A model generated the notes under the pieces. It did not search any database and had not been told where the DNA came from. It saw nothing but the letters and a program-made list of their open reading frames with translations. Shown one piece after another: positions 11,642-59,450 of a stretch of 64,000 nt of DNA. How positions within the stretch are numbered: the first letter of the stretch is position 1; each line of letters starts with the position of its first letter. The stretch spans positions 124,001-188,000 of the forward strand of contig CM102289.1 of the NCBI GenBank assembly GCA_046563655.1. Direction: 5' to 3'. The position numbers were made by a program, and so were the translations under genes. This DNA is from Yuukianura sp. NJ FZ-2021 (Eukaryota).

Positions 11642-13569
11642 ATGCCGATTACCACGAGATCTGGAAGGACGGTACGGGCATTGAAGGAAGTTGACCTTCC
11701 AATTGAGGTAACACATTCGTCACATTTACTTTTACTGGTAAAATTTTACTATCAGTGGGTAACTCCGATTTTCGTGATTTTTTTTTCACAAATACCCTAT
11801 GACCCCCTGACTAGGAAAATACAATTTTTTTCACCCGCTCTCAAAAATTTCCAATTTTTAGAAAATTTTGAAAATTACAATTTCCCCATAAGGGCACATG
11901 TTAATTTTTTTCTCAAAATAGGTTTTTGCTTTTATTTGATTAGGTTAGGTTAGGTTACGTTTTTAAAGGCTCAAACAATGTTATTATATCGTTTAGGTTA
12001 GGTTTGGTTAGGCTTCGAAAAATGGGATTTATTTTTAAGAAAAGTTAACATGTGATCTTATGGGAAATTTCCCATTTTCAAAATTTTATAAAAATTCGAA
12101 AGTATTGAGAGCGGGTCAAAAAAATTATATTTTTGTAGTCAGGGGGTCATAGGGTATTTGTGAAAAAAAAATCACGAAAATCGGAGTTACCCACTGATAG
12201 TAAAATTTTTCCCTTTTACTTCTATATTCGTTCATTATGTTATTCTAATCAAAATGTCCGTTTTTAGATGATTTGCCATATTCTTCAGTATGCCGAGTTG
12301 AAGGAGCTGCTCAACTATCGGTTTGTGAAGAGGAGCTGGAATGAAGCCGCTTTCAGAATCCTCTCCACATCTCCCCATCTCCAGCCATTCACAGTTAAAC
12401 TTCTCAATTCCACAACTGTGGATCGCATACTCAGTCTCCGGTCTACTGCCTTCCAGCCCAACTTCATCACCAAGTTTGATGTCGTCCTCAGCGAATTCAA
12501 CATTTCCACAGTCACGAGATTTGGACTGGAATTCGGAGGGTGTTTAAGACAACTGACGATGGACACTCGCAAGAAGACGACTTCCCTCAAGCGAATGAAG
12601 GCCAAAGTGCACGAGCTTCTTAAACATTGTCCCTTGATTGACACATTGACCATCATTGGTATGAATCAGCTGATCAGTCAACCACAAACGTATTACTTAA
12701 TAGTTTAATTGAATGTTTTGAAAAATTGTCTCTAGGGAACAACGACGGGACGAGTTTCATGGAAGATATAGAAGAAGTTGACCTGTGTCGTGTGAAGACA
12801 CTGACTCTCAAGTCGCCATATGATCCTGTCCTGTCCATCATTCGTCATGCTGTTATCAAGCAGTGGACAAGCAAACTCAGACATCTTTCCAAACTAAACG
12901 TGGCGTGTACTTTGGATCCCAATGAAAATGGACAACTCAAGCAGTTTCTTGTGGAACTCGGCCCACTAGACCACCTCAGTCTTTGCCTTCGATTCAAACC
13001 AGAAAATCGAACAATCTTTAGATCCCTGGCAGCAGCAAAGGTACGAAATCCCTTCATTTCTCCGATTCTGCCCATTTCTGACTTTTGTGAGTATTATTAG
13101 CTACTCTACAAATTCTTAATTTTTTTGACTGTTTTAGATCAAAATCCACGATTTGAACCTGGTTGTGGACATGGACGAAGACGATGACCAGAATCTGCTT
13201 TTCCTGAACTTGTATACTTGGTTGGCCTGGCAAGGACGCCACCTCACTCGTGTCACCCACCAACTCCATACGCAAATCACTGAAGGCCCAATCCTCAACA
13301 AATTGAAGCTCTTTGGCCAGCCACTCCGGACGGCCGGTCGTTCTGGCCAGCCGTTTCGAAACGGCCAATCTTCTTCTCTGTACTTTGTGAGTGTTTTGTC
13401 CAACGATCCAAACGAACCAGTGGAAGAGGATCCTACCGAGACACACTTTGGACTCTTTGCCAACATGGAACAGTCCATCATCAGCATCAACAAGAAAACT
13501 TCCCGAATCCTCAAGTATCTCTTCCCAAACATGAAGATTGTCCACTCCACCCACTACTTTGTCGCTTAA
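11642..13569 (+). CDS. F-box protein with probable degenerate LRR-like region; exons ~11642-11707, 12268-12658, 12737-13040, 13138-13569
   Basis: Splicing joins DLPIE|MICHILQYAELKELLNYRFVKRSWNEAA, a typical F-box; downstream LRR-like spacing (LLKHCPLIDTLTI, LRHLSKLNV). Confidence 0.75.
11740..12209. mobile_element. Foldback/MULE-like MITE in F-box intron 1, long TIRs with a TTAGG-repeat core
   Basis: ACTATCAGTGGGTAACTCCGATTTTCGTG...CCCTATGACCCCCTGACTA is mirrored at the other end for well over 100 bp; flanked by AAAATTTT on both sides; TTAGG repeats at ~11940-12012. Confidence 0.85.
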
Positions 13570-13866
13570 TTCAAACACAAATGTCTTAATAGGCCCCCTT
13601 TTCCATTGTTCTGACGCGCCTTTTTCAAAGGAATTTAAAGCCAGCGTTTACTTTTCCCCAAAAACGTTTGTTTTCCAATAGGTCTAGACATTGCCAAATA
13701 CACCTTGGAATTTAACTTTAAACTTAATTTGTAGATACAGCTAATAAACTTTAAGCAGTTTTTAAAACTAAATTTGAAAAGAGCGAAACGTTTGACTAGT
13801 TTTAGAAAACGTTGCTAAAACGTTTTACTAATTTTTGAAAACGTTGCTAAAACGGTTTAGTTTTTT

Positions 13867-15169
13867 CTATTTGTCGGCAGCTACGATTTCCATTTTGGTT
13901 TGACTGTATCTATTTCCAAGGAGGTTCAACATAAAATATGCGTAGACTTGGCCATCAAACGTTTGGAGGGCAATTGCTATAAAGTTTGAAACTGACTCAA
14001 GGTCAAACGTTTTTGTTAAAATTTTGGACGTAAAGCGCATGTCTCGCGTGCAGTTGTTCAGCAGTTGAGAAACTTGTTCAAATGAGTCATTCAAGCTGAG
14101 TCCATGCTTCTGCACTCCCCTCAGAACTGCGTTGTTCATGTCACAGTTTCTCAAATCTTTCTCAAGTCCAAAAATGTCATTTAGAAGCCCAGTGGCTAAG
14201 TTATAGCTGTTGATGAATATTTTAAAAACCAAACTTTGTCTGACATGAGAAGGCAAAGCGACGTTGCTAAGCGCAGTTGCCGCTTCCACAAAAAGCTGGC
14301 CTCCAGCATCAGCTTCTCGGATCTTCCTCATTGCTTCTTCAGAAAAAGTTTCTGTGCCTGTGCAAGTACTCGAGAATACTTGTCCAGTACTTCCAGTACT
14401 TTCAAATACTTGCCCAGTACTTCCAGCATTTCGTGATGCTTGAGTGAGGTGGATGGCCTCCACTCCCTTGAAAACTGAGCGTTCAAATGGAATAATATTT
14501 TGACGGAAGTTGGGGACCGACTTTTCAAATTTCTGAAACGCCGCGATGTAGAATGCAATGGAAAGAGCGCCAACCGGAAACGCCCTTCCAACTTCCTCCC
14601 ACACTTCAAATTCTCCCGCCAAAATCCTCTCCCACACAAAGTACTTTTTGTATAGAGATTTCAACTCTAGTGAAATTCCTGCTTCTGCGCATGTCTCGTC
14701 CAACGCATCGTCAATCTGAAATGATCCTGCACAGATACTTGCCACTCCTTCAAAAATGTCCGAGTGAACATCAAAGTTCGGAAACACCGTGACAGACAGA
14801 ATGAGCCACCCAAGAAACTTGTTCCGAAGTTGCTCCTCGTCCAGTTCTTCGTGCAAACAGCGATGTTTCCGCACAAAAGCCTCCAGAATCTTCTCCTGCT
14901 CTTCATAATCCAGTGAATAGTAATTGGAACACGGGTATTGTCTTAAAAAAGTACAAAAATAAAAATCAAATTTCAAAATTTCATGAAAAGTGAAAAAATT
15001 ACCCAAATCGAGTAAAAAGTGGAACTTCGCAAATGAGTTTGTCGGCGGTTCCATACAGAGGGTGGTTTATGTTCTCAAAAGTAATGCGGACTTTGACCTT
15101 TGACCCGAAAGGAACTTCATTTGAGGTGGAGCAGGCGAATCGGATTGCTTCCTTTCCCGGAGAATTCAT
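13867..15169 (-). CDS. Microbial-type class I terpene synthase (terpene cyclase fold); 2 exons, intron 14942-15002
   Basis: IDDALDE (DDxxD), READAG (pyrophosphate-sensor Arg region), NDIFGLEKD (NSE/DTE-like) followed by MNNAV, and C-terminal RY; upstream exon MNSPGKEA...PLFTRFG joins in phase through a 61-nt GT-AG intron. Confidence 0.85.
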
Positions 15170-15678: not shown

Positions 15679-16966
15679 ATGGCGCATTTCATGATTGGAA
15701 CACAAGTGATTTTTGTAATTTTTTTGGTGAGTGGCCTTCATGCTGAGGACTCGTACACTGCTGCAGAACTCAAGGCCATTCAAGCGGTAAGCGCTTTCAA
15801 ATTCCAACTGGAGTGCAAGTCACGATTTAATTTTGATTAGTACAAATGTATACGTAACTAAAAATTAATTTAGATTCGGCATTTGGTGAAAGATGGATTG
15901 ACCAAAAGCTACATGAAGGAGAACAAATATCTCGTTAGGTGGCTCAGAGGTGAGGAATTTGCTTTACGTTTATCGAAATGCATGCAGCATAGGCAATTAC
16001 ATTAACGCTTTACCACATAAAGTCAACTACAAAGTAACACTCTTGATTTCTTGTGCAGCTCGTGACCTTGACATTAAAAGTGCCGAAGATATGCTGAGGA
16101 GAGTAAGTTTTGAAAAGTATTTTTATAATATATTTTAATAACTTTGTAATAATAAAATACTTAGAACTTTGAGTGGAGGAAAGAAAACAAGATGGACGAG
16201 ATTGAATACGAGGATTGGAGGCAGTACGAGGCTCAGTATCCGTTCAGTTTCCACATGAAATCATACGATGGACGCCCTGGTACGCTCCTTAACACAGATT
16301 TAAACTTGTACTGTATTAAATTTGTATTTAAATTCCCAGTGCTCTCGTCGAGACTGGGTGCAATCAACATTCGACGAATAATTCTCAACGGCCAGCGACT
16401 AAAAATCCGTCGCTACTTGCTGTATGGCCTGGAGAGGGCAGTGCTAAATGTACATAAAGTTTCTAATGAAACTGGCAAGGAGTTCGTGGGATCACACTTG
16501 CTGTTCAACATGGCAGGATACGACCTAAGGACGCACTCATGCTTCCAGTGTAAGGAATATTACGCAGATTTTGTATAATACGCATGCGTATTATACTGTA
16601 ATTCCATTTTCATGACCACCCTTTTTAATTTTTTACAGGTATTGCCGGTTGGATTATTTTTGTGCAAAATTATGAAAATAATTACCCACAACTAGCACAA
16701 ACTATGATTGTAGTCAACAGTATGTAACACACAACTTTGACACCTAAAATTCCAACCTATGTTTTCAAAATTTGTCTCTAATTTGTTTTCCAGCACCTAG
16801 AATCTTTGAAACATTGTTCAGCGTGTTGAAGCCATTGCTGTCTGAGCAGTCGCAAAGGATTATTCGCGTGTACGGTGTGGACAAGGCAGAATGGAAACCA
16901 GAACTCCTTAAACTTTATCCCGAGAATATCTTGACGCCTGAGTTTGGAGGCACGTACAAGGTGTAA
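15679..16966 (+). CDS. SEC14-like CRAL-TRIO lipid-binding protein with N-terminal signal peptide; multi-exon
   Basis: YLVRWLRARDLDIKSAEDMLR, YDGRP, YENNYPQLAQTMIVVN/APRIFETLF, LTPEFGG; N-terminus MAHFMIGTQVIFVIFLVSGLHA-ED. Confidence 0.88.
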
Positions 16967-17999
16967 TGAAGCAACTATTTTGATTAGAAGTCGATTCACC
17001 ACAATCAATGTAATCGTAGCATCGAATTGCACCAAATTAATAAACTGCCGAGCAAACTGTAGTAAAAACGATTATATTTTAAACCGTACGAATTGCATCA
17101 AAGGAATGTTGGCGTATCAGTTTCTTAATTATCAGCAGAATCCGTCGTATTCCTAGGATTAGTAAAACGAGTACAAATATTGGAACTGGAACACACACGA
17201 GCTGCATCATTTGTACTCACCAGGTCAATTCAAATGCTATTGGTAATTTCAGAACTTTCCAGTAGTTGCAATGTGTGATAAGAATGCAAAAGTTTGTTAT
17301 GGTTTATTATTGTGTGGCTGTTAAGCCTTGTAACCGCATGTATTGTAGCAATTTATAAAAAAAATATTCCGTAACTGCTTTAGCAGTAACACCATGGTTA
17401 CAACAAATCAGGCTATAGTCTTTTTCCTCGACTGTGTCAAGAATCAGCCAAATCTGTCGTATTCCGAGGATTAGTCAAAACAAACAAAAATGTTGTGGTT
17501 GGTAATACTTCGACTCGCATCTTTTGTAACCACGTACTGCATTGAATTGACTAAATTACACTAACTAGTTGTTTTATTTAAGACTCAGTAGTTTTTATAA
17601 ATATGTTAATAAAGTTGATAAAATTAAGTTTTGCGGTGCTATAATTACCTGACAGTGGAAAATTACGATGTCTTTCTTTTTACATGGTATATAGTGATTA
17701 TAGTGTCGTTTGTGGATACAACAAGCCAAGCTGTGAGTGATGTCAACCAATATTTACGCATTTTTTCAAAGGAAAAAAGTTTATTTAATTTGTGTTATAA
17801 CTCCAGACGAAACGCAGTAACAATTTTGGAATTAAGTTGGTTAGATCGTTAACAGTTAGGTATTTAACTAATTAGTCATCAGTTGGTTGCCCACCAGACA
17901 ATAGCCCGCCCAAACGGATAAGGTAACAATTCAACACATCAACTACCACTCAATATTTCAAATTGTTGAATTCGTCTTTGCTTTTGCAGGAGTTAATTG

Positions 18000-22580: not shown

Positions 22581-22866
22581 CGATATACTACGCTATTTTT
22601 ATTAAACGCTTTTCAACTTTTGAAAATTAGGAAATTTATGGGTTAGGCTGTCCTCACTTCATTTTTAGTGCCAAGTGATTTCAATTGCAAACTTGGTCAG
22701 TGAATAGAAGAGGTTCGAAATCAGGCTAAATTTGACAACTCAATGAAAAAAAAATCTGGGTTAGGTTTCCCACATTTTACTTCCCAGTGCTTCAGTTTTG
22801 AAATTTTTTTCAATTTGAAAAGGTTGAACTTTCCGTTTAAAATTTTTTGGATCCTTTGTAGCTACA

Positions 22867-23661
22867 ATGCTTTTTGTTGGGATTAGAAACATTGTGTTTT
22901 GTTTCACTTTAATTTTTGTGGTTGTACTGAAACTGGGATCAAGTGATCTTCGTGACCTTTTAGATTCCACGAAAGGAGTTTTGCCCTGGAACTTTGAGCC
23001 TTCGGGGCAAGAGTGCAGTCATGTGAGAAAAGGGGGTCCAATGTGCATATTGTTCCCGGAGTCAGATCCGGGGCCCTTCTACCTGCCCCTGCACTTGGTG
23101 AGACAAGATGTGCGAGAGGGGGAGCAGGGGGTGCCGTTGACGTTGACCCTCAAGGTCATCCACATCACAACTTGTTCTCCAGTGGGGAAAGTAGCTGTTG
23201 ACTTGTGGCAGTCCAATGCATTTGGCCTCTACTCTGCCTTTCCTGGCAGAAATGTTGTGGAACAAGCAGTAGTAGCAGCCGGGAGTGGCCCTGCACGCCC
23301 CTCCTCTGGCAACACAACTACTTTTCTCCGTGGCGTCCAGTACACTGATCAAAAGGGACTTGTTAAGTTCGTGACTATTTTCCCTGGATCGTACGCTGTA
23401 CGGTGTGTCCATGTCCACTTGAATGTCCACTTCAACAACCAGATACACTATGTTGACTTGTACTTTGAGGATAGGTTGAGGAAGAGAGTGGACAAAGTGT
23501 ACCCTTACAATGTCAACTTGAGTCCAAGGCTTAACAACAAAGACGACAAATTCTACGCCAGGGACAACGGAACCATCAGCACAGTTCCACTCACGGGAAA
23601 CGTCCAACAGGGATTCAAAGGAACGATCACCATGGCTTTTGGACCAAAAACCAAGTTGTGA
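22867..23661 (+). CDS. Intradiol ring-cleavage dioxygenase, secreted type, intronless
   Basis: CILFPESDPGPFY, EQGVPLTLTL, VDLWQSNAFGLYS, FLRGVQYTDQKG, TIFPGSYAVRCVHVH with Tyr/Tyr/His/His iron ligands; hydrophobic N-terminus. Confidence 0.92.
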   Translation: MLFVGIRNIVFCFTLIFVVVLKLGSSDLRDLLDSTKGVLPWNFEPSGQECSHVRKGGPMCILFPESDPGPFYLPLHLVRQDVREGEQGVPLTLTLKVIHITTCSPVGKVAVDLWQSNAFGLYSAFPGRNVVEQAVVAAGSGPARPSSGNTTTFLRGVQYTDQKGLVKFVTIFPGSYAVRCVHVHLNVHFNNQIHYVDLYFEDRLRKRVDKVYPYNVNLSPRLNNKDDKFYARDNGTISTVPLTGNVQQGFKGTITMAFGPKTKL

Positions 23662-30259: not shown

Positions 30260-33200
30260 TCAATAATCACAATATCGGACAGGTTGACGGATGATCCTTC
30301 CACTCCTGGTAGTCGTCTCTGGAGTCATTTCAGGTTCCGGTTCCTTCCGCTTTCTCGAGTCCGTCTTCTTCCGGATCGACTTCCGTTCCAGAAACAATTC
30401 ACGGGCGATGTCATCTTGCTGAAATTCCAGTGGGTAGAGACGTTGAACTGGCCGCAACAACTCTCCATTCTTCGTTCTCAAGCGAGCCACTCGTTCCACA
30501 GCGTCCTTCCCTGGAATCAGTTCTTCAACACGCGCCATTGGCCAGAGAATCCTCTTCTTGGCCTCACTTCCGACAAGAACGAAATCTCCTAGTTTGATGT
30601 CATGCGTCTTGGTCTCCTTCCCACGTTGGACCAACAAACCAAGGTACTCCTTCCGGAATCGTTCCTTGATTTCTTCGAAGAGCTTCTCGAGAGACCTTTT
30701 CCTTTTCCCGAGAGTCTCCAACGTGATCGCTTCTGCTTCTGGAAAGTCCATGGCTGGAATGTTGTAGTGGAACATTGCTGGTGTGAGAGCCACCAAATCC
30801 TCTTGGTCCTCAGTCACAAAGGTCAAAGGTCGACTGTTGACCACAACTTCCACTTCACACAAACAAGTTTCGAGTTCCACGTAAACCAACTTGCGAGTTC
30901 CCAGCATTCTTTTCAGTAAGTCCTTGACACTGCGAATCAGCCTTTCCCACCAGCCACCCCACCATGGTGCTGAGGGAGGGTTGAACTTCCATTGAATGCG
31001 GTACTGACTTGTCCTCTGTTCAACTTCCGTCCAGTTGATCAGTTTGAAGAGATTCACCGCTCCCACGAAGTTCGTCCCATTGTCACTGTAGACAATGGTT
31101 GGTCGAGTCTTCCGCATGCAGAACCGTGTAAAGGCCAACAAAAATTCTTCAGTGGATATGGATCGTACGAGCTCCAAATGAATCCCGCGAAAGACAGCAC
31201 AAGTGAATAACACGATCCACACTTTACTCTTGTCTTTCAGTAGCAGGGGCCCAGCTAAATCGATTCCAGTCACTCCGAATGCCTTCACGTCCTTGACCCT
31301 GTCTTCTGGTAGAGCAGTCGTAGGTACTTCAACCTTCTTAGAAGTGAATCGTTGACAGACGACACAGGCCTTCAAGACTCTCTTCACTGTCTCTCGTCCG
31401 CGCAGAATCCAGAATTTCTCCCTCATCTTCCCCATTGTGAATTGTATCCCTCCGTGACATCCAATTCTGTGTTCACTATGGATAAGCAATTCCACCAATG
31501 GGTGATGACTGGGTAGTAGAGCAGGAGTCCGAAAGTTGACAGTGTCCTGGCGATGCACTAATTTCGTTTTCACACGAATAATGTCGTCTTCGTCACGAAA
31601 CACCCACAAGTCATTCACTTTCCCATTGTATTCACAAAGAGTGTCAGTTTGGATGAATTTGATTAGACGACGTTCTGCCAAGTCTATCTCCTTTGGTGTA
31701 GGAAATCCACTGCACACTTCACCTTTCCTTTTCAATTTGTCCACAAATCTGAAGATATACACAAAGACCCTCAAATTAGACAAATAAGATCCTCTCACAA
31801 CATACCAAAACGATGTGACTTGATCCTCATTGTGTAGTATCAGTAGTTTCCTTTTCCGCTCCAAGTTGATCTCTACGTCATTGACTTCGAATTCTGGAGT
31901 AGGCCAATTCTCACGACTCAACTTCAGCCAGTCAGGCCCCTCCCACCATTTAGAGTCAATGAACTTGCGCGGGTCAATTCCTCGAGATGGTAGGTCAGCA
32001 GGGTTCATCACACCAGGAACATGTCGCCATTCATCTCCTGCTGTCAAACTCAAAATTTCACGAACCCTGTTACCAACGAAGGTACCCCACTCGTCACTCC
32101 GTTTCACCCATGACAAGGCAGTTGATGAGTCACTCCAAAATGTAGTAGACACTTCACCAAATCCCAAAGCCTTCTTAACGGAAGTGGCCAGACGAGCAGC
32201 AATTGTACAACCCAAAAGTTCCAATCTGGGAATAGTCACAGTCTTCACTGGGGCAACACGAGCCTTCGATTGAAGTAATTGTAAAGAGACTCCGTTTTCT
32301 GTTTCAACACGAAGGAAGACGACAGCCGCATACGCCAATTTGCTTGCGTCAGAAAAAACGTGAAGTTGCATCTTTTCGAGATTCCACCCAACTCCACCAG
32401 AACAGTTTCTAGGAATACGAAATGAGGTTAACAATGGCACTACGTCATTCCACCACTTACTGAACTGTGTTCCCACGTCCTCGGAAACTTCTTCCTCCCA
32501 CTGTTTGTTCTCCAGCCATGCCTTCTGAAGTAGAGACTTCGGAGCGATAAGGACTGGAGTCAAGAATCCGAGTGGATCAAAGATTTGGTGGAGTTGTGAC
32601 AGAATCGTTTTCTTCGTGACCTTGAGTGAGACTTCTGGAGATACACTTGCACACGAAAGTTCATCTTTCTCCTTATTCCATCTCAATCCGAGTACATTGG
32701 TCACCCAGTCGTCACCTCGTTCTCCACCACGTTCCCACATTCGAAGTTCCATCTGAGCTTCCGATAGAATGTGAGTTGAGATGTCCTTGAACTCGTGGTA
32801 CTCACTTTCACTGTCCAGAGAGACCACACAATTGTCCACATACAGCGAGTCCTTGAGTAGACGAACGACCTTGGGATTTGAAACTGTATACTTATTCAAG
32901 TGGAAATTAATCACTGCACCCAAGAGAAAAGGACTACAATTCATACCAAATACCACTCTGTTATGACGGTAGACGATGGTTTCCTTCTTCTCTGTGTCTT
33001 TCCACCAAAGAAATCGAACAGCATTCCTATCCTCTTCATTAATCTCAATCATGAGGAATGCTTTGCGAATGTCGGAGATTACTCCAATCTTCCCGATCCG
33101 AAATCGCAACAGCACCGAAGGAATCAATTCCAGTAGATTGGGCCCTTTCTCCAGCATGTCATTTAAGGAAGGAGCTCGTCCCACCTTACACGATGCGTCG

Positions 33201-35512
33201 AAAACTGGTCTGACGGGTGTAGTAGTACTGCTAACTTTGATAACAGCCCGATGTGGTAAATAGTGACAGTTTTGACACTCCAACATCCCGTCTTCATCTA
33301 ACCGTGAAATGACTGCTTCGTCTTCCCACGTCTTGAAGATGGTGTTGTAGTCCTCGAATTTCCCCATAGCCACCAATTTCTTTGTAGTCCCCTCCAGTCG
33401 CCTAAAAGCCACTTCTCGGTTTGATGGGACTCTGATTTCTTTACTCACCCACGGAAGACTCACTGAATAACGGCCATTCGGCATCCTCTTCACAGTCTGA
33501 AGAAAGTGATCCAAAACTGCAGTCTCTCGTTCTTCTTTGGATTGGGCTTCAGCAGGATCACAAATTCCAATAGTGTCAAGTTTCCATAGTTCAGGAACCG
33601 TAGCACTCATAACAGTCATAGAGAGCACACTGGTAGCCAGATTGTTCACTTCAACCGTATGACTCATCTCAGGACCCATGAAACACCAACCAAATCTGGT
33701 TTCTGTGACTACTGAGCCACTGTCCAAACGATGAATCTTGCCAGTCAGGATCTCTCCTAGGATATCAGCACCGATAAGCAGTTCTACTTCCATGGAGTTC
33801 CTATGGTCTGAGTCACTGAGCCTAATCCCTTTCTTTTCCAGTTCCGTCAAAATGAGTCCCACTGAAACACGAGGTACACTACCACAAAGTTGTTCCTGGT
33901 CCATAACACGGATTGGCAACTTGAAAGGTCCACAGGCACTACACAAAACAACATCATAAAGATCATGTTTCACATTTTGAATCTCACCACCCCCGAACAA
34001 CTGATGATTGATGGTGAGCTTCTTTACTGATTGTAGTCCCAGTTCCTCAGCAGTGCGCTTCAGCACATACGAACGTTGAGACCCACAATCCAGTAGAACT
34101 CTCACTTTCTTCTCATCTCCAGTCTGTTGATTCCGAATCCACACCATGAGAGTTCTTAAAATAACAGCACTGGTACAGTTCAGATTTGATTGAATTGTTT
34201 GGGTGGCTTCCTTCTGCTGAGACTGTTCAGTAGGCTTCTTCCCACCATCACACAGCAGAGTGCAATGACCTTTGCAGCAATTTGGGCACTTTGTCATTTT
34301 GCACTGTCTTGATTGATGGCCCTTCTGAAGACACAAGAAACAAACTTTTGCCTGTTTAACTTTAAGGAGACGTTGATCCAGTGATAATTTAGGAGCCTTG
34401 AAACATGACCTGCTACCGTGACCTCCCTTACCACAAAATACGCACAAAGGTTTTTCTGAAGACCCGTTGAATAATCCAGCGGCCGTAGGCTCGTCTTCAA
34501 CATCTTCAGTCTCCTTCCTCTTGTTCGTCCTTTTGCGATCAATGGAGTTGAAGCCAGTTCTGGCCAGTTTCCTTTGCTCTTCATGATCAATCTCCTTCTT
34601 CAAGAAGTCCATGAGTAGATCCAGTTCTGATTTCGAATTCTCTTCCTCTGGATCCGACGATTTCCCAAAATTTGGATGTCTCTGCCATGCTCTCAGCACT
34701 TCCTCAGGCAGCGCAGACTCAACCAATGGGTACAAGAAGACAGCAGATTGTTCAATTGTGACTCCAAGCGATTCCAACGAGCGTAAATGAGCCACCAATT
34801 TGTCAAACATTGTTGACAATGCCACTGCCTCTGTATTCCTGTTGGTAATGATCATTGAGATGAGTTCCCTCACGTACAACTGCTGAAGTGTCTTCGGGTT
34901 CCCAAATCTCTCTTTCAAGGCAGCAATCACCTTAGGATAATTGGCTGCTGACTGCGGGTAACTTGCGACGAGTGCTGCTGCACGACTTCCCTTCGTCATA
35001 CATTGAGACAGATAAGAGAACTTGTCAGTAGTATGCAGATCCTCGTCATCATGAATCTTCTGAAACTGGGCCCACCAGCCCAGCCACTCCTTCAAATCCC
35101 CGTTGAACTCCTTCAGTTCTACTTTTGGCAATTTGAAGTTCCGTTTAGAACGGGAAGTAGAACCGTCCGAATCTCCTCCGACTTCTGAACGTGCTACATT
35201 CCCGGGTACTGGCGGTGGGTAGAGAAGCTTGTTGACCTTGTGTTTTAACACCTCCGCTCGGGTGATGTATACAGTACAAGCGTCATCTTCTGCTTCAAGT
35301 TCTGTCATGGTGACATCTGTATTCTTCATCATTTCTTCTAGAATCTTCTCATCCATCTCTCTCAAAGTCTTGATATGGTCATCTAGAATCGTGATTGATA
35401 CTTGCAGCGCATCTAAGTCCCCGTGTTCCTTCTGAACTTCTGCTTCTGCGGCAGTCATGACCTTAGTCGCTGCAGTCCTCTTCAATCGACGTAACTTCTT
35501 CAGGTTATCCAT
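30260..35512 (-). CDS. BEL/Pao Gag-Pol polyprotein, 1750 aa, uninterrupted
   Basis: Gag region (KLPKVELKEFNGD), Cys/His knuckles, protease LLDCGS, RT LYVDN, RNase H FSDAS, integrase HHCC and YSDNGTNF...WERL. Confidence 0.97.
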   Translation of the reverse strand: MDNLKKLRRLKRTAATKVMTAAEAEVQKEHGDLDALQVSITILDDHIKTLREMDEKILEEMMKNTDVTMTELEAEDDACTVYITRAEVLKHKVNKLLYPPPVPGNVARSEVGGDSDGSTSRSKRNFKLPKVELKEFNGDLKEWLGWWAQFQKIHDDEDLHTTDKFSYLSQCMTKGSRAAALVASYPQSAANYPKVIAALKERFGNPKTLQQLYVRELISMIITNRNTEAVALSTMFDKLVAHLRSLESLGVTIEQSAVFLYPLVESALPEEVLRAWQRHPNFGKSSDPEEENSKSELDLLMDFLKKEIDHEEQRKLARTGFNSIDRKRTNKRKETEDVEDEPTAAGLFNGSSEKPLCVFCGKGGHGSRSCFKAPKLSLDQRLLKVKQAKVCFLCLQKGHQSRQCKMTKCPNCCKGHCTLLCDGGKKPTEQSQQKEATQTIQSNLNCTSAVILRTLMVWIRNQQTGDEKKVRVLLDCGSQRSYVLKRTAEELGLQSVKKLTINHQLFGGGEIQNVKHDLYDVVLCSACGPFKLPIRVMDQEQLCGSVPRVSVGLILTELEKKGIRLSDSDHRNSMEVELLIGADILGEILTGKIHRLDSGSVVTETRFGWCFMGPEMSHTVEVNNLATSVLSMTVMSATVPELWKLDTIGICDPAEAQSKEERETAVLDHFLQTVKRMPNGRYSVSLPWVSKEIRVPSNREVAFRRLEGTTKKLVAMGKFEDYNTIFKTWEDEAVISRLDEDGMLECQNCHYLPHRAVIKVSSTTTPVRPVFDASCKVGRAPSLNDMLEKGPNLLELIPSVLLRFRIGKIGVISDIRKAFLMIEINEEDRNAVRFLWWKDTEKKETIVYRHNRVVFGMNCSPFLLGAVINFHLNKYTVSNPKVVRLLKDSLYVDNCVVSLDSESEYHEFKDISTHILSEAQMELRMWERGGERGDDWVTNVLGLRWNKEKDELSCASVSPEVSLKVTKKTILSQLHQIFDPLGFLTPVLIAPKSLLQKAWLENKQWEEEVSEDVGTQFSKWWNDVVPLLTSFRIPRNCSGGVGWNLEKMQLHVFSDASKLAYAAVVFLRVETENGVSLQLLQSKARVAPVKTVTIPRLELLGCTIAARLATSVKKALGFGEVSTTFWSDSSTALSWVKRSDEWGTFVGNRVREILSLTAGDEWRHVPGVMNPADLPSRGIDPRKFIDSKWWEGPDWLKLSRENWPTPEFEVNDVEINLERKRKLLILHNEDQVTSFWYVVRGSYLSNLRVFVYIFRFVDKLKRKGEVCSGFPTPKEIDLAERRLIKFIQTDTLCEYNGKVNDLWVFRDEDDIIRVKTKLVHRQDTVNFRTPALLPSHHPLVELLIHSEHRIGCHGGIQFTMGKMREKFWILRGRETVKRVLKACVVCQRFTSKKVEVPTTALPEDRVKDVKAFGVTGIDLAGPLLLKDKSKVWIVLFTCAVFRGIHLELVRSISTEEFLLAFTRFCMRKTRPTIVYSDNGTNFVGAVNLFKLINWTEVEQRTSQYRIQWKFNPPSAPWWGGWWERLIRSVKDLLKRMLGTRKLVYVELETCLCEVEVVVNSRPLTFVTEDQEDLVALTPAMFHYNIPAMDFPEAEAITLETLGKRKRSLEKLFEEIKERFRKEYLGLLVQRGKETKTHDIKLGDFVLVGSEAKKRILWPMARVEELIPGKDAVERVARLRTKNGELLRPVQRLYPLEFQQDDIARELFLERKSIRKKTDSRKRKEPEPEMTPETTTRSGRIIRQPVRYCDY

Positions 35513-35864
35513 GTCTCTCTCAACAGAAAGATAGGATCAATACCAGAATCCAGCCAATTATAACGAACGATCGTTACCTTGTTCGGTTCCACTCCGGTAG
35601 GAACGCACCACGATGTGAACGGCGGTTCAATTATAGACGTGAACCCGCGTCCGTGACTCCCTCAATGATCCAAGATCCAGAATGAGTGTCCAGTCACCGT
35701 CCAAAATCAACGAAACGAGAATTAGCCTGATTCAGGATTCAAATGCAAATTGGAATCTATCACCTGGTTTAATCCCACTCCGGTAGGGATCTACCACGAT
35801 GTATATCTTTGTTTAACGATGTCCAGTTGTTCCAGCGATTGACGGTCCGGCCAGGGTCACCATA

Positions 35865-36506: not shown

Positions 36507-38402
36507 CTACTCGCATGCTACTCTTGCGACGTTTTCTAGTAGATCTGCTGCTCTTTTGATGTTATTAGCTGCTTTGATGCGTGTTGAAATGGTTTTCATG
36601 CGTTTTTCCAGCATGTCGTCTGCCAAGAGTGTTTCAATTCCTTGCAGAAGTTCCTGTTCTGTGACCTGGTAGGGATCAAAGTGCAGTCCAAGTCCCATTT
36701 CTGTCACTCGCTGGCCATTGTCAGCTTGGTCGCAAAACAGCGGCAACACCAACACTTTCTTTCCGAAATGAAATGATTCTGTGATTGTGTTGTTGCCACC
36801 GTGAGTTATGACGAGGTCAACCAATGGAAGGAGGTTCGTCTGCGGCAGACTGTTGGCCCCCCACATGTTGTCACCAAGCTCCAACTGGTCGCCAAGTGGA
36901 CCTAAACAAAAGTTACACATAGTTACCATCAAGTTACGATGGTTACATGTCATGGTTACTTAATTGTAACGATGTAGCTGTAGTTACCTTTGGAAATGAT
37001 GAATCTGTGTGGAGATTTGGAGCAAATGGAGATGAGTTTGTTCATGAGCTGGAGTTCGGAGCAGCCGATGGATCCGAGCGACACGTACACCAATTTCCCC
37101 GCCAGATTTTGGAGTTTGGCGGGAATTTCAAAATGTTTTGGATCCGAGCGGACAAGAGCATCAAATTGATGGAAGTTGGGAGGGTAAGGACGGTGGATGT
37201 GATAGTCCAACTCCTGGGGGTACATGTAGAGGTTGGCATAGGGGGAGTCCCTTGTCCAGATCGCTCTGTCGTCATATCTCAACTCACTCCCGCCCTTCTC
37301 CAGGATCCAGGACCGGAACTCTTCAAAGATCGGTTCCAGAACTTGCCGCTGTTTCTTCCGGTACTCGTCCCACAGAGTGTAGTCAGGATCCAGGGAAGAG
37401 TAGCCGCTGAATGCTGGAGCAACATTGTCCACCGCCAGGCCAATTGGGTTGATAGACGTCAAACACACCCAGGGGTAACCTGCAATTTATAAGTACTTTA
37501 ATTACACTAATTACTTTGTCATTACCAAGTAATTACTCACAATTTGTATCCAGTTCATTCGAAATAAAATATTATGTGTATTTGACTTGTAGTTCTAAAA
37601 TATATGATTTCTTGTAGTAATTACTTTGTAATTACCTAGTAATTACTTGGTATTTGGAAAAAGTTCAGATGAAATGAAATATCTATCGCCAATGGACAAC
37701 TTGTAATTCCCAAATGTGTGGCACTCATAGCACTTACATTGTAATTACTAAGCAATTACATCTTAATTACTTTGTAATTACCAAGTAATTATTTGGTATG
37801 TGGAAAATGTTCAGTCGATATTAAAAATCTATCATAGACGGATATCTTGTTATCCGTAAATGCGTAATTACTAATTACTAATCACTCATATAATAGGAGC
37901 AACATAATTACCATGTAATTACTCATAGGCGTTAGTAATTGCCAAGTAATTACCCGGTAGTTCATGTGATACAAAAGAGTGCGACTACTGAAATGGATTG
38001 TTTACCGGAGTCTGAGAGTGCTGGGTTGTAGATAGCGTCGACCATGATTAAATCCGGTTGTATTTCTTCCACAATTTGGCGTAGTTTGGCGTCTGAGTCT
38101 TTGGCGTTTTGAATGAGTTGGCGATAGATGTTGGAGTTGAAGTGTTCTAGTTTGGCGAGAGGGGGCATTGCGAGTGCTGGACTCATTGTTTTCACCATTT
38201 CCCCCCACTTCTCCAGAGATGGCTCCTCCTTCTGCTCATCCTGGAAACATCTCTCACTGAAGCCCAGGGGGGTCAGTTTGCCCACCCAACTCTGCGACAC
38301 TCCGAATGTGACCGAGTGACCTCTCTCCACTAACTCCTGACCCACTCCAATCATCGCATTCACATGACCAACAGCATCAATTGGAACAAACAAAAACTTC
38401 AT
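36507..38402 (-). CDS. Soluble GT1 UDP-glycosyltransferase of bacterial (macrolide GT-like) type; 3 exons
   Basis: MKFLFVPIDAVGHVNA (catalytic His, no signal peptide), LVYVSLGS, LPQTNLL..DLVITHGGNNTITES..LPLFCDQ; ends AADLLENVARVACE* with no transmembrane tail. Confidence 0.9.
37490..37960. repeat. Degenerate TAATTAC-rich repeat region in UGT intron 1
   Basis: Many copies of (G)TAATTAC and larger duplicated blocks (attactttgtaattaccaagtaatta). Confidence 0.6.
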
Positions 38403-38603
38403 CTTCTCCAATTTCTGTAAACAACTTCAACTGCTAACAAACAGAGGAATTCGGAATTAAAATGAAGCATTGTTATTTATTTTATATAACTAACGAAATC
38501 TAGCGGTTGTGTGTCCGTCTGTACCATTAGTATAAATTACTGTTTATAACTAGGTCGCGTGTACGTGTGCTACGTTGAATACATAAAAAATGGATTTAAA
38601 AAC

Positions 38604-54587: not shown

Positions 54588-56716
54588 ATGATGGGAAGGA
54601 ATCGATTTCTATCTTCAGACAGCGTGACCTTGGAGGAAGCAATTACAGCCTACGAGAAACTGAAGAAAGGCAGGGACTTTCCCAAGTTTCTGCGCATTGT
54701 GTCTGAAAATGAGAGTCAGGAGGAGTCGCCTAGCAACTCCATCAAATCAACAAGTGAAACCGAACTCACTGACCCCAAATTCTCCAGTGGACTATTGAAG
54801 CACATCAACTTGTTTCAGCACTTCGATCACTCCAAGGTACTTTGAATCCAAAGTTTGTTTTTAACAGGTTATACCATAACTATTTTTTCTTTTACATTTT
54901 AGTACTCTTACTATTCTGCGGAGAGAGACCTCTTACAAGCTGCGACTCTGCCAGATCTAGCTCCGAACTACTCTTCCCTCCTCACTGCCTCCAACTTCTG
55001 GTTGAACATCACGAATCCAGATGAGGCAGACATCATCTTCCTCAGACAGACGTTCGATGTCAATGAAATCGTTTTATCTGAGATTCAAGAGGGAAATGCA
55101 GAAGAGAAAGTGGAGACTTTTCGCCAACACACCTTCATCTCATTCAGACTCCTCGGACAACAACAGGAACTCGGAAGTCAGGCCGCCGGAAGGGATTCGG
55201 GCAAGTCACTTTTACAATTCTCACTTTTAGCATTTTTGGTCTCATGTCATACTTAAAAACATTCTCATACGACATTGTCCGTCTGTCTGTCCTTCCGTCG
55301 CGTTTTAAAAATAAATGTCGTGGTTTCAGAAATAAGACGGACAGACGAACAATGTTGTGTCAATAGTCTTCTGGGAACGTATTTCTATCCTATCCTTAGG
55401 AAGAATAATAATGCAACTTTGTACGTCTGCCTGTCTGTCTGTGTGTTTTAAAATTACAACGAAGGTAAATTTTAAAAATGTTTTTTTTTTGTTTTTCATT
55501 AGACATGGCCTTCAACATGATCATGTTCAAAGACTTTATCATCACGACGCACAAGAATTCGTGGGACAGCATCCCCAACATCCTCTCATTCATTTCCATG
55601 ATTTGTAAAAGTGGCAAAGAAGAACTGAAGCCAGAATGGGTTTTGTTTTCAATTCTGGTAGAATTGAGTCAAGATGCCAAATTCTTACTGGATGTGATGG
55701 AACCGGAAATCGACAACATTCGGATCGGTAGTAAAAGTTTGGCCGAAATGTCGAATGTGATGCGACGGAACTTTGACATGGAATTTCAAATTTACAAAAT
55801 CAATGCCTTCATTACCCCCAAAGTTGACGTTCTCAGGCAGCTCCTCAACTCGTCAACACACTCTAGCCGCATCTCTGAAAAAATGCAAAAGCATCTGAGA
55901 GACGCACAAGAAGAATTCGTTGGACTGCTGGATCACCTGAAGAATTTTACGCATATTGTAGAGAGAAGTCAGGATACGATTCTGGCTCTGGCCAATGTGG
56001 AGCATGCGCGACTCGCAAATGGACTCGCAATTGCCATGAACAGAATTGGAGAAATAGCTCTCGTCTTCCTTCCTGTTCAAGGTTTGTTTTTAGTTTTTGG
56101 CATTCGTCGTTTCAAACTCTCGCTACTTTCTTAACAACGTTTTTAGTTTTTGGCATTTGTTGTTTCAAACTGTCGCTACTTTCTTAACAACGTTGTTAGT
56201 TTTTGGCATTTGCTGCCATTTTTGTTGTTAAGAAAGTAGCGAAAGTTAGGAAAATCTTTGGCTACTACAAAACCTCTGTTTTTTTTCAAGAATGATCTTA
56301 AGTATCTAAGAACTTTTTTTTTAAAGTTTTGTATAATTCGTCTTGTTTAAATTGCAGCTCTAGCTGGATTTTTCGGGATGAATGTGAAAGTGCCTTTCCA
56401 GAGCTACGAGTCGACGACTGCCTTTTGGTGCATCGCTTTGATTTCTTTTTTGATTGCGGTTGCAGTTTACGCTAGAAGCAGAAGTTTATCAGTTAAATCA
56501 GAAGTGACTCCACTTCCGGTGAAACTCAGAGGAGATCTTCTGCATGAAAACGAATCAGAAAAGGCGGGAGACTTCACAGACGCACATCACACTCTGCTCG
56601 GCAAAACCAAGAAAAGAAATGCCTTTACAAAGCTCAAGTGCAATCCAGTTTACACGAGAGTTGCTTCGATGTGTAGCAAAAATAACACGCAGTCGCACTC
56701 CGACCATCATGTCTGA
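54588..56716 (+). CDS. CorA-family Mg2+ channel, fungal ALR1/MNR2-like; exons ~54588-54836, 54903-55200, 55503-56080, 56358-56716
   Basis: FWLNITNP, EEKVETFRQHTFISFR, long helical stalk, then LVFLPVQALAGFFGMNVKVPF (GMN signature) and a second TM FWCIALISFLIAVAVY. Confidence 0.85.
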
Positions 56717-57053: not shown

Positions 57054-59450
57054 CTAAACCGTCGTTGTATTTTTTGAATTTGCCACTGCTGTGACTATTC
57101 TGCTTTCCTCTGCATAGTGTTGAATGGAGTATTCTGGCGGGAGTTGCTGCGATGGTTTGAAATTTGCACGGACAGTTTTGAAGGGAGGAACTGATGGAGA
57201 TTGCGCAGTGGGGGCAGTGGGAGAGTAGCTCACAGTGTTTCCATAGTCTTTGGATCCCAGATCGTAGGGATGCGTAGTTGTTTGAGCACGGGGTAAGTTG
57301 TTGTGCGGAATTTGAGCCAGCAGTTTTTGAATTCCTAAAGCTGTTGGTCTAATTCCGACTCCCGGAGTTTCCAAGTACACAATTCCCCCAGATTTCTTAG
57401 AAGTGGCAGAAGGAGAGGGAAAATTTTGGAAATTTGAATTTTGGTGGGACTTTGAATTTTGAGTTGGTGATGCTGAAAAGTAAGAAAGTTGTGGAGGAAG
57501 ATCCTCCACTTCCTCCAAAACATAGTGTTCACCAGGATGCAGTTGTGTTCCAAGAATCTCCCTGTTTTCAAAACTTTGTGTATTTTCAAAATTTTGGTTT
57601 TTTAAATGTTTGAATTCCTGATGGCCGTATTCTGCTGGTCCTGCTCTAAATAATTCCGTTGGCAAAAGCCGACTGTTTCTGGGCGTCTGAGCTGGAATTT
57701 GTGTTTGTTCAAAGCTTTTTGAAAATGTTGGATTCAAATTTCCGGCTGGTTGGTGGTGGTAGTCATCAGATTCAAAGTTAGAATTTTTCAAAAACGAAAC
57801 ATGATGATTCGTGTGTAAGTCGGGAGAAAGTCGAGATGGCTTCTGCGGTTGTGCAATTTGAAATTGTTGTTTAGTTTGTGGAATGGACGGAGGATTTGTA
57901 GCAGGCCCCGCCCTTTGACCCCACGACACAGGAGCGTAGTGTGCCGTTTGGTGAAAGTAGTTGATTTTGTCGTAGATGCTGTTTGGAGTTGATCGAGGAT
58001 TCTGATTGGCTGTTGAGTGAAATGGAGGACTGTGATTGGCTGTCGAGTGAAATGGAGGGTTCTGATTGGCTGTCGAGTGAAATGGAGGGTTCTGATTGGT
58101 GGAAACTGTTGGCCCAAAAATGGCTCGTTTGAAAGTTTGATACTGCGGAGTTGGAGATGGTTTTGGATTCAATGGAGGCTGTTCAGTAGAAACTTTTTGA
58201 AATGCTGGATGAGCTGTCGGAGAGTGTGCGTAATTCGAGTAGTTTGGCGGAGAGTTTTCTATTGGTTGGTTTTTGAAATACTGCTTTCCTATTGGTTGTT
58301 TGAAATTCTGTTTTCCTATTGGTTGCTTCAAATGTTGGTGAGTGTTGACCTCTCCTGACCTGTGTTCTGAATAGTAGTGAAGTGATGGGGACAAACTGGG
58401 ATGGACTCTTGCCCCACTGGAGGAGAAAGTGCGGAATTTGAATGCTGGTGGGGCCGATGGCGGGGCATGGTGGACTTGGTGGGGCACTGCGGTGGGTTTA
58501 GTTGCAGAAATGGGTTGGTGTTGAGGTTCTGAATGTTCTTGAGAGTGTGCAATTGCACTGCCTTCCCCCTCGTACGTGACATCCGCCTTGAAACCAGTTT
58601 TCCCATCAGCAGTATACCGAACCACCTCAACGTAAAATAAAATTTAAGCATAACAAACTTTAGTTACAACAATTTTTTTTTCAAAATTCAAAAAATTAAA
58701 AAAAAAGTGCTTGTTGAAAACGAATTTTGACTGCATTCTTCTTACCTGTAAACGACCGTCAGGTAATAAAACCTAAAAAATTAAAAGTTAGACAAATTCG
58801 AACTCATGCAAAACTTTCTCTTTGTTAAAATCAAAATTTAGTGAAAATTTGTTAAATTTAGTACCTTGTACTCTCCCATGGTGACTTTGCCATCTCTGCT
58901 TTCTTTGTGTGATAGATTGAAGTCGTCACTTACGGGAGTGTAGCCATTCTTCGGTCGAACTGCATATGCAAAAGCATATTTCTTCCCTTCCTAAACTCAA
59001 TATTTTGTTGAGATCACAATTTAACCAAAACAAATTCTTTAACTACAATTTTAACAAATTGAGATTCAAACTTTGTACCGTTTGATCTTCCAGATGCTGT
59101 GTAGTGACATCTGTAGTGGGGCGATAGTGAATTGGTGGAAGTGGCGTTGCGGCTGAATGTTGGCCAATTCTTTTGCTGCTTCTTTTGACTCCTGCCACTC
59201 TGAACACTTTTAACTGTCCATTTGGCCCTCGCTTGACTACATATTCAACGTTATTCGGATTGATTCCTAATCCCGCATTGGCGAGGAGCTGCGAAGACGC
59301 AGAGTCGTAAGTGGTTCCGTATTTTTGAATGTTGAGGTCGTTCCGAGATGCGTAGAGTGCAGATCGCACGGAACTTTCTCCTCTAAACTGATTGGAGAAA
59401 GCTGTTTTCTTCCGGAGACAACAAGAACATGGCAAACCAAGATCAAAATC
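57054..59450 (-). CDS. Cuticular protein with R&R chitin-binding domain and long low-complexity C-terminus (5' end not resolved)
   Basis: Spliced YAFAYAV...HKESRDGKVTMGEYK|VLLPDGRLQ|VVRYTADGKTGFKADVTYEG; internal repeats TANQNPPFHS and QPIGKQxFK. Confidence 0.78.

Follow-up and report, generated by a model that had tools for sequence, protein, structure and literature searches.

A probable two-exon arthropod gene for a predicted class I terpene synthase with an NDxxGxxxD metal-binding motif

The stretch of DNA analyzed here (the window) comprises 64,000 nucleotides (nt) of contig CM102289.1 in the Yuukianura sp. NJ FZ-2021 assembly GCA_046563655.1, and it carries on its minus strand, at 13867..15169, a gene for a predicted terpene synthase in two exons. 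The ATG lies at 15169..15167. Exon 1 (15003..15169, minus strand; 167 nt) consists of 55 codons and two bases of a glycine codon and codes for an N-terminal extension that precedes the synthase fold, and exon 2 (13867..14941, minus strand) encodes the whole terpene synthase alpha domain and closes with the stop codon at 13869..13867. Between the two lies a predicted spliceosomal intron of 61 nt (14942..15002, minus strand) with GT..AG borders and a GC content of 16%; because the glycine codon is split, with two bases in exon 1 and the third in exon 2, the intron is in phase 2. The spliced coding sequence of 1242 nt contains 413 codons followed by the terminal stop and no internal stop. A phase-correct 61-nt intron had been proposed in an earlier note made from the letters of this DNA, and the borders, the phase, and the intact 413-codon frame bear that proposal out.

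The same note had named four motifs, all of which lie on the minus strand where it had placed them. DDALD (14698..14712, minus strand; residues 133-137 of the full-length protein) is the first, aspartate-rich metal-binding motif, and the protein has this single DDxxD motif. READAG (14302..14319, minus strand) holds the diphosphate-sensor arginine (full-length R264) and the helix-break region that follows it. The second metal-binding motif, NDIFGLEKD (14155..14181, minus strand; full-length residues 310-318), has the form NDxxGxxxD, and an RY pair stands near the C terminus (13906..13911, minus strand; full-length residues 400-401). In class I synthases, the diphosphate-sensor arginine precedes the asparagine of the second (Asn/Ser/Glu, NSE) motif by about 46 residues. 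Here, the distance from the READAG arginine to the NSE-like asparagine (R208 to N254 in exon-2 numbering) is exactly 46 residues, a spacing also found in 27 of the 37 family members examined. In an alignment of 18 sequences, D77, R234, N254, R344, and Y345 (exon-2 numbering) are invariant and D78 is nearly so. When the family profile was run against 1548 open reading frames (ORFs) of at least 25 residues, it matched 13870-15066 only, and no second copy of the synthase was found in the window. Both the arginine sensor and the RY pair are named as motifs in a 2026 study of springtail synthases (PMC13638087).

Fold prediction and Pfam searches were run on the unspliced translation of exon 2. This protein matched PF19086 (Terpene_syn_C_2) at E 6.9e-10, its score of 39.4 bits exceeding the cutoff of 23.7, and no polyprenyl-synthase family appeared among the Pfam matches at E <= 1. 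The AlphaFold2 model is all-helical, with a pLDDT of 86.8 and a pTM of 0.86. All 42 matches listed by Foldseek are class I terpene synthases, with TM-scores of up to 0.77 on the target, and no prenyltransferase was present among these or among the 50 matches listed by VIA-align. The earlier note had taken the gene for a microbial-type class I cyclase and had pointed to profile searches and the best structural match as ways of judging this. Pfam, the predicted fold, and the structural matches agree on a single-alpha-domain enzyme of that type: the terpene-synthase profile scored above its cutoff while polyprenyl-synthase profiles went unmatched at E <= 1, and the Foldseek matches listed were class I terpene synthases, not prenyltransferases or proteins of some other fold.

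A homologue search in which 1.84 billion representatives were scored returned 41 proteins at E <= 1e-3, of which 15 reach E <= 1e-10 and six reach E <= 1e-30, and a word-indexed search gave a single match, P0003, at 53% identity. The records of 30 of the 41 homologues were looked up. All but one come from metagenome or run assemblies and lack an informative name. The exception, and the one named animal relative, is Folsomia candida XP_021952902.1, which aligns with the window protein over 292 residues at 24% identity (pairwise E 9e-15); no sponge, mite, or gnat protein was recognized among these 30. The near relatives P0003-P0012 stand in public protein collections without an informative name.

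DNA was available for four relatives (loci L001-L004), three of which (L001-L003) have DNA upstream of exon 2. At each of these three, the predicted "protein" corresponds to exon 2 only, and an ORF homologous to exon 1 lies upstream of it; the window's exon 1 and its L001 counterpart are identical at 26 of 55 residues. All four genes with upstream DNA, the window gene included, are interrupted in the same glycine codon, just before the x-Y/F-P start of exon 2, by a phase-2 intron, which measures 61 nt in the window, 73 nt at L001, 108 nt at L002, and 59 nt at L003. The L004 contig ends 597 nt upstream of its gene, and no exon 1 was seen in that stretch. The L001 and L004 contigs also carry multi-exon, animal-looking neighbors, by eye an anion-exchanger-like gene, a C2H2 zinc-finger array, and a membrane carrier. 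The intron and the N-terminal exon recur in paralogues whose identity to the window protein is no more than 33-35%, and we therefore regard both as old features of the lineage and not as marks of a recent transfer.

The public predictions for these relatives are truncated at the intron: P0004, P0005, and P0007 (loci L002, L003, and L004) start at an internal methionine of exon 2, and P0003 (locus L001) begins without a methionine. All four were probably called by a prokaryotic gene finder, and as a result of such calls the family seems to be about 320 residues long and "bacterial" in databases. A profile of the N terminus of ten long-form family members was run against 1643 ORFs; L003, L002, and L001, in this order, took the top three ranks with their exon-1 ORFs (E 0.06-0.5), and the window's exon-1 ORF came seventh, at a nonsignificant E of 3. 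The reverse profile, built on exon 1, gave weak matches at the N termini of the long-form proteins P0031 (E 0.18) and P0028 (E 0.32) and no match at the N terminus of L005, a chlamydial synthase discussed below. Because these profiles are weak, the homology of exon 1 to the long-form and chlamydial N termini rests on L001-L003 and on inspection by eye. One further member, P0029 (779 amino acids, from a run assembly), contains the synthase domain twice in tandem, each copy with an N-terminal pattern of its own.

The second metal-binding motif of the window protein misses the strict consensus (N/D)Dxx(S/T)xxxE: NDIFGLEKD has the asparagine and the spacing, with glycine in place of serine or threonine and aspartate in place of glutamate. 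All ten nearest relatives (P0003-P0012) have NDxxG(L/F)xKD, and the form with glycine and aspartate occurs in most rows of a 25-row clade around the window gene, while canonical NDxxSLxKE is found in more distant long-form members and in bacterial relatives. The same variant has been described in sponge type I synthases, where NDXXGXXXD is accompanied by DDXXD and RY in 12 of 13 characterized, assayed-active enzymes (PMC9992776), and NDxxGxxxD is present in nine of ten Acanthella cavernosa enzymes (PMC13483135). Since active sponge enzymes carry this motif, it is compatible with catalysis, and since it is also fixed across the near clade, we do not take it as a sign of decay. The earlier note had described the motif as noncanonical and as a possible cause of altered product or activity; the two substitutions are real, but they are shared across the clade, as in active sponge synthases, and are not peculiar to this gene. 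A motif so far described for sponge enzymes is in this way linked to an arthropod clade, and its Gly/Asp form offers a concrete mutational test of the role of the motif.

The host was approached through the content of the window. Pfam matches include Wnt, serpin, pancreatic-type lipase, cadherin repeats, NOL9, an arrestin-like exon, a sugar transporter, GMC oxidoreductase exons, BED and FLYWCH fingers, and an intact Pao retrotransposon frame. A cuticle-protein-like gene at 57054-58990 (minus strand) shows by eye a Rebers-Riddiford-type domain spread over three exons and a long Pro/Gln/His-rich tail with repeats. The Pfam content, the cuticle-like gene, and the Wnt matches lend modest support to an arthropod host, with no finer placement, although a hexapod-line animal such as a springtail is a possibility.

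We conclude that the locus is probably a two-exon nuclear arthropod gene for a 413-residue predicted terpene synthase of class I, the "canonical", microbial type, in which a single alpha domain is preceded by an extension of about 65 residues encoded mostly by exon 1. The predicted enzyme would bind an all-trans prenyl diphosphate, most likely farnesyl diphosphate (FPP) and possibly geranylgeranyl diphosphate (GGPP) or geranylfarnesyl diphosphate (GFPP). Three Mg2+ ions would be held by DDALD and NDIFGLEKD, with a water molecule or the backbone replacing the missing Ser/Thr side chain in the latter, and the diphosphate would be held by R264 and the R400/Y401 pair. Ionization would then start a carbocation cascade leading to a terpene hydrocarbon or alcohol, which might act as a volatile signal or in defense, as the earlier note had supposed.

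Several observations weigh against this conclusion. The PF19086 match covers the C-terminal half alone (exon-2 residues 204-300; profile positions 103-199 of 199), and the best PDB sequence match is weak (9wf7_A, E 0.0015) and is titled an inactive synthase, the next matches being pentalenene synthases at E 0.76-0.77. A Ser/Thr/Gly-rich insert of 26 residues (14359..14436, minus strand; full-length residues 225-250), which follows the helix that ends at residue 174 and precedes the sensor helix, is present in the window copy alone and in none of 17 other aligned sequences. It is built on a 9-nt tandem repeat (TRF 14383-14426, period 9, 4.6 copies) and is predicted to be disordered (pLDDT <50 at exon-2 residues 175-194). 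The terminal branch of the window gene, 0.45, is threefold that of its nearest relative P0003, 0.15. In the tree described below, the grouping with springtail synthases depends on one Folsomia sequence on a long branch, and approximately unbiased (AU) tests reject neither that grouping (p 0.418) nor its alternative. As for the host, the six best matches of the Wnt exon are insects at identities of just 43-53%, and the Chitin_bind_4 match is partial (48 residues, in the ORF at 57054-58643) and, at E 0.00098, below the Pfam cutoff.

The insert and the long branch bear on an alternative in which this copy is decaying or catalytically dead, either as a pseudo-enzyme or as a recent duplicate under relaxed constraint. 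To them may be added the noncanonical form of the NSE motif, four variants in read contigs of which two alter residues (H to Y and R to K), and the precedent of enzymes that are inactive despite intact motifs, as is one of five in Sinella (ScTC4) and one of five in Bradysia (BcTPS4). The Gly/Asp motif, however, is found throughout the clade and in active sponge enzymes, the frame of 413 codons is unbroken, and every invariant catalytic residue is retained. At 44 clade-conserved columns, the window protein deviates at six, none within a motif, which is inside the family range (0-13 deviations in the other ten sequences). The product of the L001 gene (393 residues) matches the window protein at 218 of 390 aligned positions (56%). 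Between the two genes, dN amounts to 0.35-0.36 and synonymous change is saturated: NG86 could not compute dS, and LWL85 gives a dS of 2.07 and an omega of about 0.17. A contig of 702 nt from another study's organism, moreover, runs over 14287-14987 of the gene at about 93% identity, with 49 differences and a single gap. We read the insert as a loop expansion that the protein tolerates, leave a minor probability to relaxed constraint, and consider a decaying or dead copy unlikely.

Canonical terpene synthases are by now established in several arthropod groups. They were reported from trombidid mites in 2018 (PMC6275457), and a survey of 2024 found them in five Sciaridae among 361 insects and in 14 of 76 non-insect arthropods, namely two Collembola and 12 Acariformes (PMC11665903). 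Ten enzymes in all were active in assays in that study, three from Collembola, three from Acariformes, and four of the five from Bradysia. In springtails, 277 genes, 152 of them with introns, were counted in 21 of 26 genomes in 2026, and four of five Sinella enzymes were active on substrates from FPP to GFPP (PMC13638087). In light of these three papers on mites, Sciaridae, Collembola, and Acariformes, the premise of the earlier note that characterized insect terpene synthases derive from isoprenyl diphosphate synthases or farnesyl diphosphate synthases (IDS/FPPS) is outdated. Because canonical arthropod synthases have already been published, the window gene is a further member of a known group and not a new category. 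It may nevertheless belong to a sub-clade that is still without biochemical characterization. Under the screening rule of PMC11665903, which asks for DDxxD, NSE/DTE, and at least 250 residues, the window protein has DDxxD and a length of 413 residues, and its NSE motif is of the Gly/Asp variant. The gene adds to the growing evidence that some arthropods make terpenes by means of their own canonical synthases and not through symbionts, and it does so as a case documented by a gene model, an intron conserved among paralogues, an N-terminal exon, and intact catalytic residues.

The springtail synthases (FcTPS, AfTPS, and ScTC1-5) resemble the product of the window gene in being arthropod-resident and in having a single alpha domain, DDxxD, the arginine sensor, and RY. 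The N-terminal extensions of ScTC1-5 also resemble the N-terminal pattern of the window family, as judged by eye only, whereas their second motif is canonical NDxxSxxxE where the window clade has NDxxGxxxD. The 24% identity between the Folsomia and window proteins falls within the spread of 19-97% among Sinella paralogues (PMC13638087). The motif strings of the window clade are absent from the accessible part of the supplement to that study, and an N-terminal extension goes unmentioned in its main text. Acariform mite and Sciaridae synthases are likewise of the bacterial/fungal class I type, arthropod-resident, with introns and family expansion, and assayed members are active.

Likeness to the sponge type I synthases is one of motifs alone. 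These enzymes, too, are encoded by animals, consist of an alpha domain only, and combine DDxxD, NDxxGxxxD, and RY; they have been assayed as active sesquiterpene synthases (PMC9992776, PMC13483135), and their genes, unlike the window gene, are mostly without introns. Identity to the window protein is 9-17% for class I enzymes of known structure that make sesqui-, di-, or sesterterpenes in bacteria and fungi, namely selinadiene synthase (4okm), 10-epi-cubebol synthase (7zrn), pentalenene synthase, and BcBOT2 (8h6q). The solved-structure synthases have the canonical Ser/Thr and Glu in the NSE motif and lack both an extension of the exon-1 type and introns.

Bacterial relatives were sought in one genome per bacterial or archaeal species. 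Two peptide patterns derived from the six closest sequences found no relative of the near clade in 185,579 such genomes, and the same kind of scan with patterns from long-form members found 22 loci. The best of these is L005, from a metagenome-assembled genome of the Parachlamydiaceae, whose synthase is 42% identical to P0020 over its full length. It lies within a complete-looking mevalonate operon (L005 1-7053) in which Pfam recognizes HMG-CoA reductase, a NUDIX-type isomerase, diphosphomevalonate decarboxylase, the synthase, a GHMP kinase, thiolase, and HMG-CoA synthase. The L005 synthase is 31% identical to the window protein over 121 residues only. Its N-terminal extension resembles by eye those of the long-form members, whereas its second motif is the canonical NDIFSLRKE, in a bacterial operon, as against NDIFGLEKD in an animal genome. 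Any match was found in four of 201 genomes of the same order, three of them distant at 19-26% identity. No literature joining "terpene synthase" with "Parachlamydia" was found, and among the papers listed on horizontal gene transfer and chlamydiae, none ties these bacteria to a terpene synthase in its title or the opening of its abstract. ORFs with DDYSD and NDILSLKKE in Staphylococcus pseudoxylosus, S. aureus, and S. shinii (L007-L009) match the C-terminal half of the family at 27-29% identity.

A maximum-likelihood tree of 44 rows was computed in IQ-TREE under LG+G4, leaving out rows shorter than 250 residues and the two-domain P0029. The window gene pairs with P0003 (support 100/99), and the pair is nested in clades of seven (99/97), 11 (95/93), and 25 rows (99/98). 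Three lineages, namely this 25-row clade, the group of L005, and the Folsomia protein, meet in an unresolved trichotomy. Together with L006, these three groups are set apart from the actinomycete and Staphylococcus synthases (96/90), so that the window gene, the Folsomia protein, the metagenome proteins, and L005 share one wider clade. This tree, with bacterial relatives and one springtail sequence, takes up in part the phylogeny that the earlier note had called for. The tree and the records show the window gene to be part of a deep and diversified clade that is represented almost exclusively by environmental contigs, and the clade members with visible DNA are, by their gene structures, animal genes with the same intron.

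Horizontal acquisition of the synthase, as the earlier note had supposed, is plausible on these comparisons. Any such acquisition would be ancient, because the intron and the N-terminal exon are common to paralogues only 33-35% identical, and a chlamydial donor is only a lead, because just four of 201 genomes of the order match, three of them distantly. The same age of the intron and the N-terminal exon is what one would also see if there had been no transfer into arthropods at all, the gene belonging to an old animal family inherited vertically with many losses or having one origin with the NDxxGxxxD synthases of sponges. The identical metal-binding motif in sponge enzymes and the failure of the near-clade patterns to find a close bacterial relative in the 185,579 species genomes speak for such a history, and PMC13638087 allows for one acquisition by an ancestral arthropod with subsequent losses. 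Against it, no sponge sequence was recognized among the 30 homologue records, sponge sequences look by eye little like the window protein outside the motif, such genes occur in just 14 of 76 non-insect arthropods and five of 361 insects (PMC11665903), and the wider clade includes the bacterial relatives L005 and L006. We consider this history improbable. A broader proposal, which we put forward as a doubtful one, is that of a deep animal-borne lineage, marked by the N-terminal exon, the phase-2 intron, and a fixed NDxxGxxxD, in a host outside Acariformes, Collembola, and Sciaridae, which would share its origin with the springtail and sponge synthases; within this proposal, that origin would be an old metazoan family or one type of donor, such as a chlamydia-like intracellular bacterium.

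The bacterial/fungal type of the fold and motifs could also reflect microbial contamination or misassembly, with the gene lying outside the animal genome, and the assembly's own reads are represented by short contigs, none of which spans the whole 6-kb stretch. Yet the spliceosomal intron keeps its position in relatives, and the composition is host-like: with a window GC of 39.8%, the synthase has a GC of 0.44, a GC3 of 0.445, and a codon-usage correlation r of 0.64 (0.37-0.76 in host exons), all within the host range. Two read contigs of the probable source sample, at 13521-14016 (0 differences) and 13543-14295 (three differences), bridge the last exon of the tail-to-tail neighbor and the 3' end of the synthase, and the same run from the other study's organism also contains pieces of both neighbor genes. 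Animal genes flank the synthase on both sides within 300-510 nt. The earlier note's statement that the gene is no bacterial contaminant is upheld by the conserved intron, the animal neighbors, the host-like GC and codon usage, and the bridging read contigs, and we regard contamination or misassembly as extremely unlikely. An IDS/FPPS-derived synthase or prenyltransferase, like the insect enzymes characterized earlier, has virtually no probability: IDS and class I terpene synthases do share the alpha-terpenoid fold class and an aspartate-rich motif, but the window protein has one DDxxD and not two, its RY pair and arginine sensor are spaced as in bacterial-type synthases, no polyprenyl-synthase family matched in Pfam at E <= 1, and prenyltransferases are absent from the 42 Foldseek and 50 VIA-align matches listed.

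Of the two neighbors, the one tail-to-tail with the synthase (12268..13569, plus strand) has three exons and an F-box-like start, and 297 nt separate its 3' end from the stop codon of the synthase. No Pfam family matched 12268-12705 at E <= 0.001. The nearest Atlas clusters, with scores of 0.91-0.92, have F-box families in 11-55% of their members, and the Atlas taxa, Rotifera and Mucoromycota, are uninformative. The divergent neighbor (approximately 15679..17153, plus strand) is SEC14/CRAL-TRIO-like, with its ATG at 15679, about 510 nt from that of the synthase, and a CRAL_TRIO match at 16748-16963 (plus strand; E 3e-5). Of the F-box and SEC14 neighbors that the earlier note had named, SEC14 holds by its CRAL_TRIO match, but the F-box, unmatched in Pfam, is a lead only. 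Just upstream of the F-box-like gene, the interval 11700-12300 is a high-copy repeat: its depth in read contigs is roughly tenfold relative to the sequence on either side, and joints and loose ends are numerous there.

Several other features of the window were recorded. A single-exon intradiol-dioxygenase-like gene (22828-23658, plus strand; Pfam Dioxygenase_C, E 8.9e-7) encodes a protein with a hydrophobic N terminus. It has ten matches at E <= 1e-5 (29-42% identity), none of them labeled animal: two are named by organism, both bacterial (Taibaiella and Nocardioides), two are labeled protocatechuate dioxygenase beta subunit, and six are nameless. The window may have in it a second gene of foreign origin. 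The Pao/BEL retrotransposon frame at 30263-35536 (minus strand) is unbroken over 1758 residues and includes DUF1759, Peptidase_A17, reverse transcriptase, integrase, and DUF5641. In a glycosyltransferase gene at 36510-38426 (minus strand), the C-terminal exon matches UDPGT modestly (E 1.4e-12) and also EryCIII-like_C and Glyco_tran_28_C; its frame ends without an obvious membrane anchor, and it looks like a bacterial-type GT1 enzyme rather than a typical animal UGT. Finally, a multi-exon gene at 54903-56713 (plus strand) matches the CorA-like Mg2+ transporter family (PF01544) in three exons, a family unusual for an animal.

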